A DNA stretch of 6,659 nucleotides from a virus (IMGVR_UViG_3300018467_000013), one strand, 5' to 3'. Numbered from the stretch's first letter, positions 2,144-6,659 are shown. The notes: a model not told the origin generated them from the sequence alone. Program-made: numbers and translations.

Positions 2144-2183
2144 TGTCCACCGTGATTCACGTTCGTGAACATGTCCTTTCAGG

Positions 2184-2259
2184 GCCGATATAGCTCAGTT
2201 GGTAGAGCAGCGCATTCGTAATGCGAAGGTCGTAGGTTCGACTCCTATTATCGGCACCA
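2184..2259 (+). tRNA. thrW: tRNA-Thr, anticodon CGU
   Basis: 76-nt sequence GCCGATATAGCTCAGTTGGTAGAGCAGCGCATTCGTAATGCGAAGGTCGTAGGTTCGACTCCTATTATCGGCACCA folds as a cloverleaf: 7-bp acceptor stem (GCCGATA/TATCGGC), D-arm AGCTC/GAGC, anticodon loop TTCGTAA with CGT, T-arm GTAGG/CCTAT with TTCGACT loop, encoded CCA end. Position directly downstream of proA matches the thrW locus. Confidence 0.92.
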
Positions 2260-2262
2260 TTC

Positions 2263-2425
2263 TAACGTCTCCCCAAGTCTACTCAAGTATTTAAAAACCT
2301 CTTATAATCCGCATGTTAGCGCCCCTTTTAGTCTTTTGACGTCTACTTAAGTACCCCAAAATCTACAGTCAATTGGGGGTACTTTTGGGGGTATTTGCTG
2401 TTCGGTTTAGTGGAGGTACCCCCAA
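2263..2425. repeat. attL-proximal repeat cluster, candidate integrase arm-type and excisionase binding sites
   Basis: Direct repeats GTCTACT(C/T)AAGTA at 2277-2289 and 2341-2353. G5TA/TAC5 motifs in inverted pairs: GTACCCCAAAA 2351-2361 with TTTTGGGGGTA 2384-2394, and TTGGGGGTAC 2373-2382 with GGTACCCCCAA 2416-2425. The last copy overlaps the integrase ribosome-binding site and GTG start. Confidence 0.5.
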
Positions 2426-3640
2426 GTGAAACTCAATGCCCGTCAAATAGACACTGCCAAGCCAAAAGAGAAGGCTTACAAGCTGGCTGATGGTGGTGGT
2501 CTGTATCTCCTGGTAAAACCTAGTGGAGGAAAATACTGGCGCTTTAAATATCGTGTAGCTGGTAAAGAGAAGCTGTTAGCACTAGGTGTGTATCCTGAAG
2601 TTACCTTGGCTGATGCTCGTGCAAAACGTGAAGAAGCTAAAAGGGGTATCGCTGGGGGTATCGATCCGATGGAAGCGAAACGAGAGGAAAAGATTGCCCG
2701 GGAAACGCAGTTAAACAATACCTTCAAAGATATTGCCCTTGAGTGGCACAGCAGCAAATTAAAAAAATGGTCTGCTGGTTATGCTTCAGATATCCTCGAA
2801 GCCTTCAACAAAGATGTGTTCCCTTACATTGGCAAAAAACCAATTGCCGAAATCAAACCACTTGAACTTCTGAATGTGCTGCGACGCATCGAGGGGCGCG
2901 GTGCTACAGAAAAAGCCAAAAAAGTGAGGCAGCGGTGCGGGGAAGTTTTCCGCTATGCAATAGTCACTGGTCGCGCAGAGTATAACCCTGCCCCAGATCT
3001 TACTAGCGCGATGCAAGGCCATGAATCTAATCATTATCCTTTCCTCACAGCCAAAGAATTGCCTGATTTTTTCAAGGCATTGTCCAGTTACTCAGGAAGT
3101 GCATTGGTTGTTATGGCGGCTCGTCTACTGATTATCACTGGTTTGCGAACTGGCGAACTGCGCGGTGCATTATGGGATGAAATCGATCTCAACAAGGCTA
3201 TCTGGGAGATACCTGCTTCACGGATGAAAATGCGTCGCCCTCATGTGGTGCCTTTGTCTAAGCAGGCTCTTTCTCTTATTGGGCAGATTAAAGAATTAAC
3301 TGGTAATTATCCGCTTATGTTTCCCGGCCGTAATGATCCAAGGAAAACAATGAGCGAGGCTAGCATAAACCAAGTATTTAAACGCATCGGCTATAACGGA
3401 AAGGTTACTGGTCATGGATTCCGGCACACCATGAGCACGATTTTACATGAGCAGGGCTATAACACCGCGTGGATAGAAACGCAGCTTGCACACGTTGATA
3501 AGAACTCAATTCGTGGCACGTACAATCATGCGCAATATCTGGACGGGCGGCGCGAGATGCTCCAGTGGTACGCCGACTATATGGATTCGCTCGAACATGG
3601 CGGTAACGTGGTGCATGGCAAGTTCGGAAAATGTGGATGA
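2426..3640 (+). CDS. Site-specific tyrosine recombinase, P4-family phage integrase
   Basis: 404-aa ORF with GTG start and a GGAGGT ribosome-binding site 8 bp upstream. The N-terminus (KLADGGGLYLLVKPSGGKYWRFKYRVAGKEKLLALGVYPEV) resembles the arm-binding domain of P4-type integrases. The C-terminal catalytic domain carries conserved R (RTGELRGALWDEIDL), the H-x-x-R box (HGFRHT) and the tyrosine nucleophile region (RGTYNHAQY). The gene is adjacent to the tRNA. Confidence 0.92.
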   Translation: MKLNARQIDTAKPKEKAYKLADGGGLYLLVKPSGGKYWRFKYRVAGKEKLLALGVYPEVTLADARAKREEAKRGIAGGIDPMEAKREEKIARETQLNNTFKDIALEWHSSKLKKWSAGYASDILEAFNKDVFPYIGKKPIAEIKPLELLNVLRRIEGRGATEKAKKVRQRCGEVFRYAIVTGRAEYNPAPDLTSAMQGHESNHYPFLTAKELPDFFKALSSYSGSALVVMAARLLIITGLRTGELRGALWDEIDLNKAIWEIPASRMKMRRPHVVPLSKQALSLIGQIKELTGNYPLMFPGRNDPRKTMSEASINQVFKRIGYNGKVTGHGFRHTMSTILHEQGYNTAWIETQLAHVDKNSIRGTYNHAQYLDGRREMLQWYADYMDSLEHGGNVVHGKFGKCG

Positions 3641-3762
3641 CTGGTTGCGTATACAGTAGTAGACTTTGAGCGACGAAAGAAAAGGCTGTGTCTAGGGTCG
3701 CTCCCGAAAATCCGTACACCTCGACGGACTGGTACAGCCACTACAGTAGAGGACGCTGAGGT

Positions 3763-4566
3763 GTGCGTATGATTGATATTCATGCCGAATTAAACGAATA
3801 CAAAAAAGATTTTATTTCTTTACGTGAATTTCTTGAGGTCGTGCTTAAGGTCGCTGGTGATGATTATGATGTTTCAGATGTCATAACTTGGATACTCAGG
3901 AGAATAAGCGGAGAACATATCCGCCTGTACACAGTAAATGAATTTAAGCTGTTGGAATCTTTTTGTAACCCGTATCGGGATGAATTTGATTATGATGTTC
4001 TTTATAGAAATCTGAATGCGGTTCGGAAACGTGGTTGTTTACCTGGTGAGAGGGATGAAAATGGTTTTCTGGTGTCCGGTTATTGGGAAGATCCCGAATT
4101 TGAGAACATTGGATTTATAAGGGGTGAAATTTTCGCAATTTTTCCCGATGTCCTTGACGCGTTAACGAAGCTGGAAGGCGCTAACTCTTCTGAAAATGAC
4201 GAGGCACAAGGACGCGATATTGAAAAGAAAGAGTTGCGTACAGAGGATGATTTATTATCCCAAATCGCAATGCTGGAAAAAGAAAACGCAGAGTTAAGGG
4301 CAAGGATAGAGCAGTTAGAGCAAGAGCGCCCGATACACTTATATAAATACTGGGATAAAGACCCATTAGCTAAGGCTATTGAGATTAGAAACAGAGAGTG
4401 GGCCAATTACGATCCAGAAAATGATTTTGCCACCAGGGGAAATCAAGAAGCGATAACCAGGGAGCTTAAGCAGTGGGGGGCAAGTAATGCACTTGCAACG
4501 CTCATAGAGAGGACTGCCTGCCCTATTAACCGAGACAACAGCCAAAAGAACGCAAAGCCGGATTAA
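3763..4566 (+). CDS. Hypothetical acidic coiled-coil protein (267 aa), orphan island cargo of unknown function
   Basis: Clean 804-bp ORF with GAGGT ribosome-binding site 7 bp before the ATG. It is strongly AT-rich relative to its flanks. The protein has a large excess of D/E over K/R, a central heptad-like segment (LLSQIAMLEKENAELRARIEQLEQER), and no Walker A, HTH or other motif I can recognise. It sits in the first cargo slot downstream of the integrase. Confidence 0.7.
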   Translation: MRMIDIHAELNEYKKDFISLREFLEVVLKVAGDDYDVSDVITWILRRISGEHIRLYTVNEFKLLESFCNPYRDEFDYDVLYRNLNAVRKRGCLPGERDENGFLVSGYWEDPEFENIGFIRGEIFAIFPDVLDALTKLEGANSSENDEAQGRDIEKKELRTEDDLLSQIAMLEKENAELRARIEQLEQERPIHLYKYWDKDPLAKAIEIRNREWANYDPENDFATRGNQEAITRELKQWGASNALATLIERTACPINRDNSQKNAKPD

Positions 4567-4581
4567 CGCACCATACCGCAT

Positions 4582-4723
4582 ACCCTGAGGGTGATTTACT
4601 GTTACCCTGAGGGTATTTTTTATCTTCCCCGTCAATTTTACCATCACCCTTAGGGTAGATTTCCTCCCGATTACCATCACCCTTAGGGTTAATTTCCTTC
4701 CGGTAACCATTAGGCCTGAGGGT
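4582..4723. repeat. Phased array of five near-palindromic 11-mers ACCCT(G/T)AGGGT, including 2.5 tandem copies of a ~33-bp unit; candidate operator or iteron array
   Basis: Copies at 4582-4592 and 4604-4614 (ACCCTGAGGGT), 4646-4656 and 4679-4689 (ACCCTTAGGGT, each within TTACCATCACCCTTAGGGT), and a degenerate copy at 4713-4723 (GGCCTGAGGGT). Start-to-start spacings are 22, 42, 33 and 34 bp, roughly whole helical turns. The array lies in the 226-bp gap between the orphan gene and alpA. Confidence 0.65.
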
Positions 4724-4792
4724 ATGAAAATATTCGTTATTTCTGTGCCATGATTACCTCGTCAAATTGAGTAGACGTTATGAGGTAAATAT

Positions 4793-4990
4793 ATGTCAAA
4801 TACGCTTATTCGTTTAACAGAAGTTCAGCGTAGAACTGGATATAGCAAGGCATGGATTTATCGCCTTATGGGGCAAGGTAAATTTCCTGTATCAGTTAAA
4901 ATTGGCTCGCGAGCTATTGCTTTCGTTGAGAGTGAAATTGACGAGTGGATTAATCAGCGTATTGCGGAATCACGCGGAACAGCTACCTGA
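4793..4990 (+). CDS. alpA: AlpA-family phage/island transcriptional regulator (Vis/Xis-like, MerR-type HTH)
   Basis: 65-aa ORF with GAGGT ribosome-binding site 9 bp upstream. The sequence LIRLTEVQRRTGYSKAWIYRLMGQGKFPVSVKIGSRAIAFVESEIDEWINQR matches the AlpA/Vis family signature (HTH followed by the ESEIDEW motif). Such genes typically sit near P4-type integrases. Confidence 0.85.
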   Translation: MSNTLIRLTEVQRRTGYSKAWIYRLMGQGKFPVSVKIGSRAIAFVESEIDEWINQRIAESRGTAT

Positions 4991-5067: not shown

Positions 5068-5868
5068 ATGAAATTTCCAAAAACGCCCGTACAGGGGCGG
5101 GGCTTCGTTCGGCCTGAAAACCAGAATCTGCAAAATTTCGGCGAAATTATCCCGATTATTTCCGGCGTTATTGGCGGGAGTGAAACCACTATTGTTAGCG
5201 CCAGAGCGTTACATAAGGCGTTAGGTGTAGGGCGCGTTTTCCGTTCGTGGATCAAGGGGCGCATTGAAGAATACGGGTTCACGGAAGGCGTGGATTATGA
5301 GGTTGTTGAATATTTGAGCCGACCCGATCCGGTGAGCGCAAAATCTCGCCAGCAAACCGCTCTTGAGTACATCATCACAGTGAACATGGCGAAAGAACTG
5401 GCGATGGTCGAACGTACCGAACAGGGCCGCGCCGTTCGCCAGTACTTTATCAAATGCGAGGAGGAGCTACACAAGGTTGCGCCTGTTCGTTCCGCAGCGT
5501 TACGCCGGGAACTGAAAGCCCGTATCACAGTTGCCAGCTACTTTAAGCCAATGTGTGCCGCGCTGGAGGCGTACCGGGCTGAACTGGGTAAAAACACGTT
5601 CCAGCACCACTACACCACGGAAGCCAATATGCTGGCGCGTATCGTGCTGGGTGGCATGACTGCAAAACAGTGGGCGCAGGCGAACGGCATCACAGGCGAA
5701 CCACGCGACCACATGAGCACGTTGCAGCTTGAGCACCTTTCTTACCTTGAGCAGAGCAATATCACGCTGATTGAGTTAGGCCAGGGCTACCACCAGCGGA
5801 AAGCTGAATTAATTCGTCTTTCGCAGCGTTGGTTAGCCCGTCGCATGGAGGAAAACAGCCATGTGTAA
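5068..5868 (+). CDS. Phage antirepressor-like protein with AntA/AntB-type N-terminal domain
   Basis: 266-aa ORF with AGGAG ribosome-binding site 7 bp upstream. The N-terminal segment SARALHKALGVGRVFRSWIKGRIEEYGFTEGVDYEV resembles the AntA/AntB antirepressor domain consensus. G+C is closer to host-like, and the gene is co-directional with alpA. Family assignment is from memory of the domain signature, not from a search. Confidence 0.65.
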   Translation: MKFPKTPVQGRGFVRPENQNLQNFGEIIPIISGVIGGSETTIVSARALHKALGVGRVFRSWIKGRIEEYGFTEGVDYEVVEYLSRPDPVSAKSRQQTALEYIITVNMAKELAMVERTEQGRAVRQYFIKCEEELHKVAPVRSAALRRELKARITVASYFKPMCAALEAYRAELGKNTFQHHYTTEANMLARIVLGGMTAKQWAQANGITGEPRDHMSTLQLEHLSYLEQSNITLIELGQGYHQRKAELIRLSQRWLARRMEENSHV

Positions 5869-6628
5869 CGCTCTGACCGTTACAAAAAGAGAAAGCGCCC
5901 CGTTGCCGGAGCGCCTTTGTGAACGAATAGCCTACTGCGCCATATTGCTTACTGTCTACGAGGCAGATTATAGCGTTGTGGTCGCACAGAGTGAAGGCAC
6001 TGATCACCGTTACTACAGCACGCCAGAAATGCAGAATATTTCGCTGCAAAATGCCGTTGGCCACGCTGTCCGGAAAGCAAAAAATTTTGCTGGTGGCGTG
6101 ACTGATGCGATTTTGTCAGGTCACCAGGTGCTGATCAATCTGATGTCTGATTTCGTTCTGGATAAAACAAAGGCGACTGCAGAGGGCCACCAGTGGGAAA
6201 GCTACACACTTGAACACATTGCCAACAATGCCAGATTTGCGGCTGGTGGGCAATGTGATCAGTGTGCTGGCTTGCTGGTGGGCTATTCATGCTCTTTAAC
6301 ATTGCCATGCCGCGATGTTTTCCAGGTATGTGATCCCATTTTTGTGCGCCTGTACTCTTTAAGGAATTGCTCAAGGGCAAAAGCACATGGCGCGAATCTT
6401 TCTGATTCATGCTCTATCTTTCTGCGCCGTCTTTTCCGTGCCGGTGATAATGTTTTGGTCAATTCTTTATCGGTCATTGTGTTGTCCTGCATAGCAATGC
6501 GCCGTAATACCTTACACCACGGCGCTGATGGTGATTACTCTGGTTCTTTGGTCTTGCGACGCTGGAGTTCTTCGCGTGCAACGGTGACAAGCTGCCCGAT
6601 TTCTTCCGCTGCTTTGATGCCGATTTGA
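5861..6628 (+). CDS. Uncertain ORF; the 5' portion (to about 6300) may be a real coupled gene, the 3' portion is probably non-coding read-through
   Basis: The ATG at 5861 overlaps the upstream stop in ATGTGTAA, a translational-coupling arrangement. The ORF has no stop until a TGA formed at the adapter junction (6626-6628). Its last ~100 codons are rich in rare codons (AGG, ATA, TCA) and give a Cys/Ser/Arg/Leu-rich translation, whereas the opposite strand reads as a plausible protein C-terminus. Confidence 0.3.
   Translation: MCNALTVTKRESAPLPERLCERIAYCAILLTVYEADYSVVVAQSEGTDHRYYSTPEMQNISLQNAVGHAVRKAKNFAGGVTDAILSGHQVLINLMSDFVLDKTKATAEGHQWESYTLEHIANNARFAAGGQCDQCAGLLVGYSCSLTLPCRDVFQVCDPIFVRLYSLRNCSRAKAHGANLSDSCSIFLRRLFRAGDNVLVNSLSVIVLSCIAMRRNTLHHGADGDYSGSLVLRRWSSSRATVTSCPISSAALMPI
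6535..6627 (-). CDS. C-terminal fragment (30 codons plus stop) of a convergent gene whose body lies beyond the contig end
   Basis: Reverse-complement translation from 6627 gives QIGIKAAEEIGQLVTVAREELQRRKTKEPE followed by TAA (6537-6535), using common host codons and with a protein-like amphipathic composition. The frame is open to the adapter junction. Confidence 0.35.
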   Translation of the reverse strand, partial: QIGIKAAEEIGQLVTVAREELQRRKTKEPE

Positions 6629-6659
6629 GATCGGAAGAGCACACGTCTGAACTCCAGTC
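6628..6659. other. Illumina TruSeq adapter sequence (technical artefact, not genomic)
   Basis: AGATCGGAAGAGCACACGTCTGAACTCCAGTC matches the standard TruSeq read-through adapter prefix exactly. Confidence 0.95.

Follow-up and report, generated by a model that had tools for sequence, protein, structure and literature searches.

Integrases with two DNA-binding domains place their N-domain on arm sites and their C-terminal domains on core sites, and in this way build a recombination complex. P4, whose target is leuX (thrW here), carries attP arm repeats that, together with its int gene, are said to have been described by Pierson and Kahn in 1987, and P4 Int reportedly represses itself, an observation attributed to Piazzolla in 2006. 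The P4 record (NC_001609) lists five features annotated as "attP arm sequence repeat", set 2+2+1 around a tRNA-derived core with a 12-nt pitch, which is also the arrangement predicted for the element analyzed here.

In KplE1 (CPS-53), IntS and the RDF TorI both repress the intS promoter (PMC2951348). ICEMlSymR7A IntS has five arm sites of consensus TGKTGGTATC, all of them required for integration (PMC11963761; Verdonk 2019 cited there); it represses its own promoter (~25%), and the RDF binds just upstream of P3 (PMC11963761). IntI of PAI I536 in uropathogenic E. coli, a P4-like island integrase, represses its own promoter (PMC7286903). Criteria of an 'STI shape' for negatively autoregulated tRNA-then-int genes were set out by Panis 2010 (PMC2951348) and include overlap of the int promoter with sites bound by integrase or RDF; among tested relatives with this gene order the searched literature records autorepression for KplE1 intS, intC, intL, PAI I536 intI and R7A intS (PMC2951348, PMC7286903, PMC11963761).

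Here we compare these systems with the start of a genomic island at thrW. It is contained in what we call the window, the whole 6,659-nt stretch of DNA that was analyzed (IMGVR_UViG_3300018467_000013). A preliminary description had noticed G5TA repeats ahead of the integrase gene and read them as arm-type integrase sites or operators with a role in int autoregulation.

The thrW island and the repeats ahead of int

The window is E. coli DNA and runs from a partial proB through proA and thrW into the start of the island (Table 1). Positions 2150-3700 are 100% identical to the chromosome of E. coli UTAK-5, in which the island covers ~20 kb between thrW and a truncated LysR gene adjoining paoD. 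Its first genes are, in order, a 404-aa integrase gene, an unknown ORF, an AlpA-family gene 1.2 kb downstream of int and an antA-type gene; its cargo comprises antA, a RepA-family helicase and gapS1 and is not that of a P4-like satellite. Homologues of the AlpA-family gene lie downstream of int in many relatives. A query spanning thrW and int was found, at 80% coverage or more, in 819 of 5,426 complete E. coli genomes. The element is inserted at the tRNA 3' end and the core, TCCTATTATCG(G)CACCATT, is duplicated at the far element end, at the two positions given in Table 1. The thrW 3' end is thereby present once more at the UTAK-5 attR (TCCTATTATCGCACCATT), and the core is also present at both ends of the corresponding island in QML220614.

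Table 1. Coordinates of features in the window, counted from its first nucleotide
Feature	Position	Strand	Evidence or remark
thrW, tRNA-Thr(CGT), integration target	2184..2259	+	ARAGORN; Rfam tRNA 71.8 bits
attL core block TCCTATTATCGGCACCATT	2243..2261	.	recurs minus 1 nt at attR, L001:40253-40270
Candidate int -10 TATAAT	2303..2308	+	prediction; weak -35 TACTCA 2280-2285
Degenerate distal copy (TTTGGGGTAC, four Gs), outside the canonical five	2351..2360	-	one mismatch
Predicted arm-type site P'1 (TTGGGGGTAC)	2373..2382	+	at ~-52 in relatives
Predicted arm-type site P'2 (TTGGGGGTAT)	2385..2394	+	12 nt from P'1; at ~-40 in relatives
SD GGAGG	2412..2416	+	last G common to P'3
Predicted arm-type site P'3, inverted, top strand GTACCCCCAA	2416..2425	-	occupies the SD-to-start spacer
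int, P4-cluster tyrosine integrase, 404 aa, GTG start	2426..3640	+	Pfam; PGAP same start
alpA-family gene, candidate RDF (excisionase) of the int module	4793..4990	+	Pfam Phage_AlpA E = 4.6e-19

Other features of the island and its relatives were observed as well. The gap upstream of the AlpA-family gene (4581-4726) holds five copies of the palindrome (T/C)ACCCT(G/T)AGGGT, which resemble operators at which a dimeric protein would regulate alpA. At the window end, the sequence AGATCGGAAGAGCACACGTCTGAACTCCAGTC (6628-6659) corresponds to an Illumina TruSeq adapter, so that the contig end is an assembly artefact; an ORF at 5861-6628 extends to the adapter junction. In the UTAK-5 locus, an isolated TTGGGGGTAC lies beside IS1 at L001:30556-30811 with a 22-nt match to the attR flank (TTAAATATCAAT...). 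This is possibly a remnant junction of an older element, in which case the 20-kb island could be composite. Among the related loci, L004:1-790 (E. coli MLI106K4), L234 and L295 have, ahead of int, a further integrase gene or the attR of an element of another class, with just a partial tRNA between the elements; these are tandem or decayed island arrays at a single tRNA.

A motif search located TTGGGGGTA exactly at 2373(+), 2385(+) and 2417(-), all within 53 bp, and with one mismatch at 2352(-). The strings named in the preliminary description are all present, GTACCCCAAAA at 2351-2361, TTGGGGGTAC at 2373-2382, TTTTGGGGGTA at 2383-2393 and GGTACCCCCAA at 2415-2425, although the last two had been placed at 2384-2394 and 2416-2425. 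They had been grouped into two inverted-repeat pairs. The second of these pairs stands: 2373-2382 and 2416-2425 form a perfect 10-bp inverted pairing, and 2369-2382 with 2416-2429 give a longer one of 14 nt that is 93% complementary. Exact pairing in the first is confined to the 8 nt CCCCAAAA/TTTTGGGG, because the copy at 2351-2361 has four Gs, not five, and this degenerate copy is not conserved: of the window and the 80 related loci considered below, only the window, L006, L012, L014, L016 and L017 have it. The array is better parsed as a tandem direct pair with a 12-nt pitch followed by one inverted copy. This last copy does lie between the ribosome-binding site and the GTG (2426-2428), as had been stated.

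The integrase combines an N-terminal Arm-DNA-bind_3 domain (DUF4102; residues 3-88) with Phage_int_M and Phage_integrase domains (Pfam E = 3.6e-29, 1.3e-34 and 4.8e-26, respectively), which is the arm-binding, central and catalytic organization of the P4-type integrases (IntSXT subgroup). Its residues 2-99 match the solved arm-binding domains 3JU0 and 3JTZ. AlphaFold, run on residues 1-110 as a single sequence, points to strands at 25-30, 37-45 and 49-59, with a mean pLDDT of 56 that is too low for residue-level mapping. The GTG start at 2426 proposed earlier holds up well: it is the first start codon past an in-frame TAG (2408-2410), NCBI PGAP agrees on it, the Pfam domain begins at residue 3, and the equivalent codon is ATG in 75 of the 80 relatives. 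It is GTG in the other five, which makes GTG the trait of a small subclade and not a conserved device for low integrase expression.

Far-end sites and the arm-binding domain

The tandem pair ATTGGGGGTACTTTTGGGGGTAT recurs as an exact 23-nt copy at L001:40169-40191, ~20 kb away and 82 bp inside the attR core. In QML220614, whose 9.3-kb island has different cargo and an integrase 92% identical to that of the window, the same pair lies 70-80 bp from the attR core. A pair at attR and three int-side sites give the element five predicted sites, which we assign as P1 and P2 (L001:40170-40191, outside the window) and P'1, P'2 and P'3, arranged 2+2+1 around the thrW core. The arm motif is repeated on both sides of this core, and the 12-nt pitch is that annotated in P4. 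If attR and attL are joined, as in an excised circle, 212-213 nt are expected to separate the two pairs, and IMG/VR contigs that carry both pairs and then int have spacings of 212, 222, 219 and 219 nt. The remaining IMG/VR matches are of two kinds, one consisting of the pair, an inverted copy and the int start, and the other of the pair, ~60 nt of AT-rich DNA and a tRNA 3' fragment; many IMG/VR prophage ends show tandem pairs and then the same core fragment as the window.

The comparison set comprised 80 loci encoding relatives of 56-99% identity. Most of these loci retain direct copies at ~-52 and ~-40 and a third copy at ~-10, counted from the start. In relatives of the G5[T/C]A class, the third copy directly follows a conserved GGAG and is 0-3 nt away from the start; in seven loci, CGGGTAY replaces G5[T/C]A and the third copy has direct orientation. 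In the G5[T/C]A class, int starts 162-166, 175 or 198 nt past the tRNA end, with 166 nt from thrW in the window, and the two loci of the CGGGTA class for which a tRNA was found give 154 and 148 nt. This spacing holds across five targets: tRNA-Thr(CGT), Thr(TGT), Arg(CCT), Arg(TCT) and Gly(CCC).

A second repeat, (G/A)TCT(A/C)C, was observed between the core and P'1, at 2266-2271, 2277-2282, 2341-2346 and 2361-2366, and one of its copies overlaps the weak -35. In another clade it changes to TCAAC or TCAAG, independently of the N-domain swap described below, and loci of the TCAAC class are without alpA within the fetched flank. By analogy with the sites of TorI and RdfS, this repeat may be the region bound by the RDF (AlpA).

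Across the window and the 80 loci, GGGGG is followed by T in 42 and by C in 32, and the recognizable copies of a locus always agree. Of the 404 integrase columns, the five with the highest mutual information for T versus C (29, 31, 50, 53 and 58) all fall in the arm domain. The residue changes from T to C are L29 to E/Q, K/N31 to F/V, L50 to R, L53 to F and E/D58 to T/A, and P4 Int, which has C-type repeats, carries E29, R50 and F53. A direct comparison is offered by L021 (T) and L023 (C), which are 95.7% identical after residue 95 and 62.8% identical before it, and whose upstream DNA is the same up to the start of P'1. As also seen within L019-L030, these are near-identical thrW integrases that differ from P'1 through ~residue 95, and the block is a natural swap of arm sites together with the arm-binding domain. 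Motif class requires 2 Fitch changes on the N-domain tree versus 8 on the rest-of-protein tree, and together with the swap this indicates that arm sites and arm domain travel as a module. The sites adjoin the N-domain coding sequence (all within ~350 bp), however, so physical linkage could explain part of the co-segregation.

The IMG/VR data follow the same pattern, with L50 next to T-type pairs in 22 of 24 distinct N-domains and R50 next to C-type pairs in 16 of 19, the three exceptions to the latter being truncated or disrupted genes. Mixed T/C pairs occur in 23 and 14 stretches, versus at least 120 for each pure pattern. The far-end context of the C type was taken from IMG/VR contigs; the C-type island of E. 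coli 806883 (>50 kb) is decayed, with IS elements and CTX-M-15. In one prophage family (L328-L346, IMG/VR contigs of ~52 kb), a mixed pair, GGGGGTAtctgtGGGGGCA, stands ~70 nt before a different tRNA 3' end, and L341 has TA, CA and TA sites together with an L29/L50 integrase. Based on this mixing, discrimination of base 7 does not extend to every lineage.

Arm motif specificity follows the arm-binding domain, subject to the caveats of linkage and mixed pairs. A strict T/C code was considered and rejected as absolute, because mixed pairs stand in real att contexts of other lineages. A softer recognition rule can be offered tentatively, and we hold it as quite possible without calling it probable: Leu29/Leu50/Leu53 would go with GGGGG-T-A, Glu or Gln29/Arg50/Phe53 would go with GGGGG-C-A, and the block would be exchanged as a unit. 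Under this rule, the block from arm sites to N-domain would swap between integrases that keep their catalytic domain and tRNA target. If the residues contact base 7, P4-type arm specificity would be predictable from sequence and reprogrammable.

Sequence comparison strongly supports the assignment of the G5TA repeats as arm-type sites for the adjacent P4-type integrase, in line with the first of the two roles proposed for them initially. An integrase of this type with an Arm-DNA-bind_3 domain adjoins the repeats, the same pair stands by the attR core in two islands of different cargo, the motif covaries with the arm-binding domain, and the P4 attP arm repeats share both motif family and layout. 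An open-access literature search for GGGGGTA or TACCCCC with attP returned no link, only primer noise.

Recombination and the expression of int

Taken as a whole, the explanation that we consider very probable is that the repeats are predicted integrase arm sites for the recombination complex, with repression of int also expected. We propose that the repeats would be bound by the N-terminal Arm-DNA-bind_3 domain of the adjacent integrase, and that the int-side sites would form the P' arm of attL, one end of the ~20-kb island at the thrW 3' end. Judging from the integrase family, their main job would be to let integrase bridge arm and core DNA, building the intasome for integration, and excision would use the same complex together with an AlpA-type RDF. 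By analogy with related systems, integrase on P'1-P'3 would also lower int transcription, either as a roadblock or with the promoter wrapped into the complex.

The position of the sites makes this second effect plausible. P'1-P'3 lie between the likely promoter and the start, with P'3 filling the SD spacer, so that integrase bound there would be expected to repress transcription of int. The candidate -10 is ~120 nt upstream of the int start and lies upstream of the G5TA sites, not under them, so repression would involve either a roadblock or a loop that brings the promoter into the complex. TATAAT or TATACT is kept at the -10 position in most thrW-linked relatives; a sigma-70 and terminator scan of 2050-2600 returned no plus-strand promoter and no terminator. 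As no terminator separates thrW from int, thrW read-through could contribute. TTGACG at 2336-2341 was also considered as a promoter element and rejected, being without a usable -10 and not conserved. The locus resembles the 'STI shape' in having tRNA and then int in the same orientation and an intergenic region long enough for attL (166 nt), and by analogy negative autoregulation of int is plausible. The preliminary description had expected integrase occupancy to occlude int translation or transcription initiation. Occlusion of translation has to be dropped, since a DNA-bound protein cannot do this and could only block or roadblock transcription.

It is also conceivable that the arm sites serve recombination only, that P'3 at the start reflects the packing of int against an attachment site of fixed geometry, and that occupancy is without meaningful effect on int expression. 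The predicted promoter does lie upstream of the sites, and autorepression in ICEMlSymR7A is modest, at ~25% (PMC11963761). The nearly constant distance from tRNA end to start across targets suggests that geometry drives placement. Against this, every tested relative of the same gene order and orientation shows autorepression, and P4 int is said to do so too; we regard an exclusive role in recombination as unlikely.

A role in the mRNA, by which P'1 or P'2 would pair with P'3, hide the SD and the start and limit integrase translation, alone or alongside protein binding, appears improbable. RNA 2366-2432 folds at -24 kcal/mol (z = -3.1 versus shuffles) with the GTG within the stem, a P'2:P'3 stem covers the SD in the longer RNA 2340-2450, and concerted T-to-C switches keep the pairing. 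The longer RNA is not unusually stable, however (z = -1.84), and the hairpin requires a transcription start upstream of 2373. Rfam returned no cis-regulatory RNA over 2340-2450, where other hits were far below gathering scores and just the tRNA passes. The same pair stands at attR without a gene to regulate, and a direct third copy precludes the hairpin in the CGGGTA class and in L103, L150 and L206, where the site is nevertheless kept. Based on the pair at attR and the direct third copy in some clades, a hairpin cannot be the main role. As the sole explanation it fails; as a side-effect of the arm sites it is possible.

That the repeats are operators for another regulator, AlpA or a repressor, and not integrase sites is highly improbable. 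The AlpA-family gene downstream of int would supply such a regulator, and RDFs bind the int-side arm in KplE1 and in ICEMlSymR7A (PMC2951348, PMC11963761), but the motif follows the integrase N-domain and not the cargo, islands of unrelated cargo have the same motif, the P4 record names the homologous repeats attP arm repeats, and the GTCTAC repeat is the better candidate for an RDF site.

In 2000 first-order Markov simulations of the window, counting any 9-mer on either strand without overlap in a 60-nt span, two copies were common (1819/2000) and three copies rare (1/2000), so the significance of the pattern rests on the third copy. A chance cluster of G-rich words, which the frequency of two copies would favor, has a negligible probability and is already refuted by the rarity of three, by positions conserved in most of the 80 loci and by recurrence at attR. 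The repeats first noticed are thus real features, with three exact copies, positions kept across most of the related loci and more copies at attR.

Comparison with P4, KplE1 and other integrase systems

The five predicted sites, taken with the core, fix both ends of the thrW island exactly and delimit its minimal recombination module, and the geometry of a pair, ~210 nt, a pair, an inverted copy and the start provides a signature by which attL, attR and attP can be found for integrases of this family. The motif-residue link hints at arm-domain positions that set DNA specificity, which suggests a use in engineering these integrases. The finding itself matters little, as the design of the attachment site is an ordinary one for the P4 type.

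Read in the sense of int, the P4 sequence is TGGGGGCACaaaaGGGGGCAT, core, TGGGGGCATaatTGGGGGCAT, 19 nt, GTGCCCCCAA and ATG. Its fifth repeat is inverted and falls on the int start, and P'3 does likewise in the window. The distance from core to int start in P4 (~164 nt) is similar to that in the window, and the Int N-terminus includes MKLNARQ in both. The motif is TGGGGGCAY in P4 and TGGGGGTAY, the T-variant, in the window; base 7 is C with E29/R50/F53 in P4 Int and T with L29/L50/L53 in the window integrase. P4 has no counterpart of the window's degenerate distal copy. P4 also has a second in-frame ATG inside the repeat, whereas in the window the in-frame TAG excludes an upstream start. The annotated P4 int start (MCPQMKLNARQ) lies inside the fifth repeat (L366:216-227; record 3915-3926), four codons ahead of the ATG to which all relatives align, which leaves P4 with two candidate starts and the window with one.

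KplE1 has the tRNA and then int in the same orientation as the window, with 161 nt from argW to the ATG, and its IntS is 49% identical to the window integrase. Its int-side arm also holds three sites, the last of which abuts the ATG, as in the window. Its arm motif is GGGTAAAA, present as one direct and two inverted copies, whereas the window has two direct and one inverted. The mapped KplE1 promoter is inside the site cluster, with the -10 overlapping P'1 and transcription starting 28-29 nt from the ATG (PMC2951348), whereas the window's candidate -10 is the upstream one discussed above.

In ICEMlSymR7A, intS is directly downstream of attL, as int is in the window, and the consensus TGKTGGTATC is close to TGGGGGTAT(C) of the window. 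Unlike the window element, ICEMlSymR7A is an alphaproteobacterial conjugative element in which the RDF activates the intS promoter and has its gene far from int. PAI I536 is a different island again, for which the searched text of PMC7286903 emphasizes IHF and does not describe arm sites. Set beside these systems, the attachment-site feature of the thrW island is the standard P4-type integrase design, found at another island.
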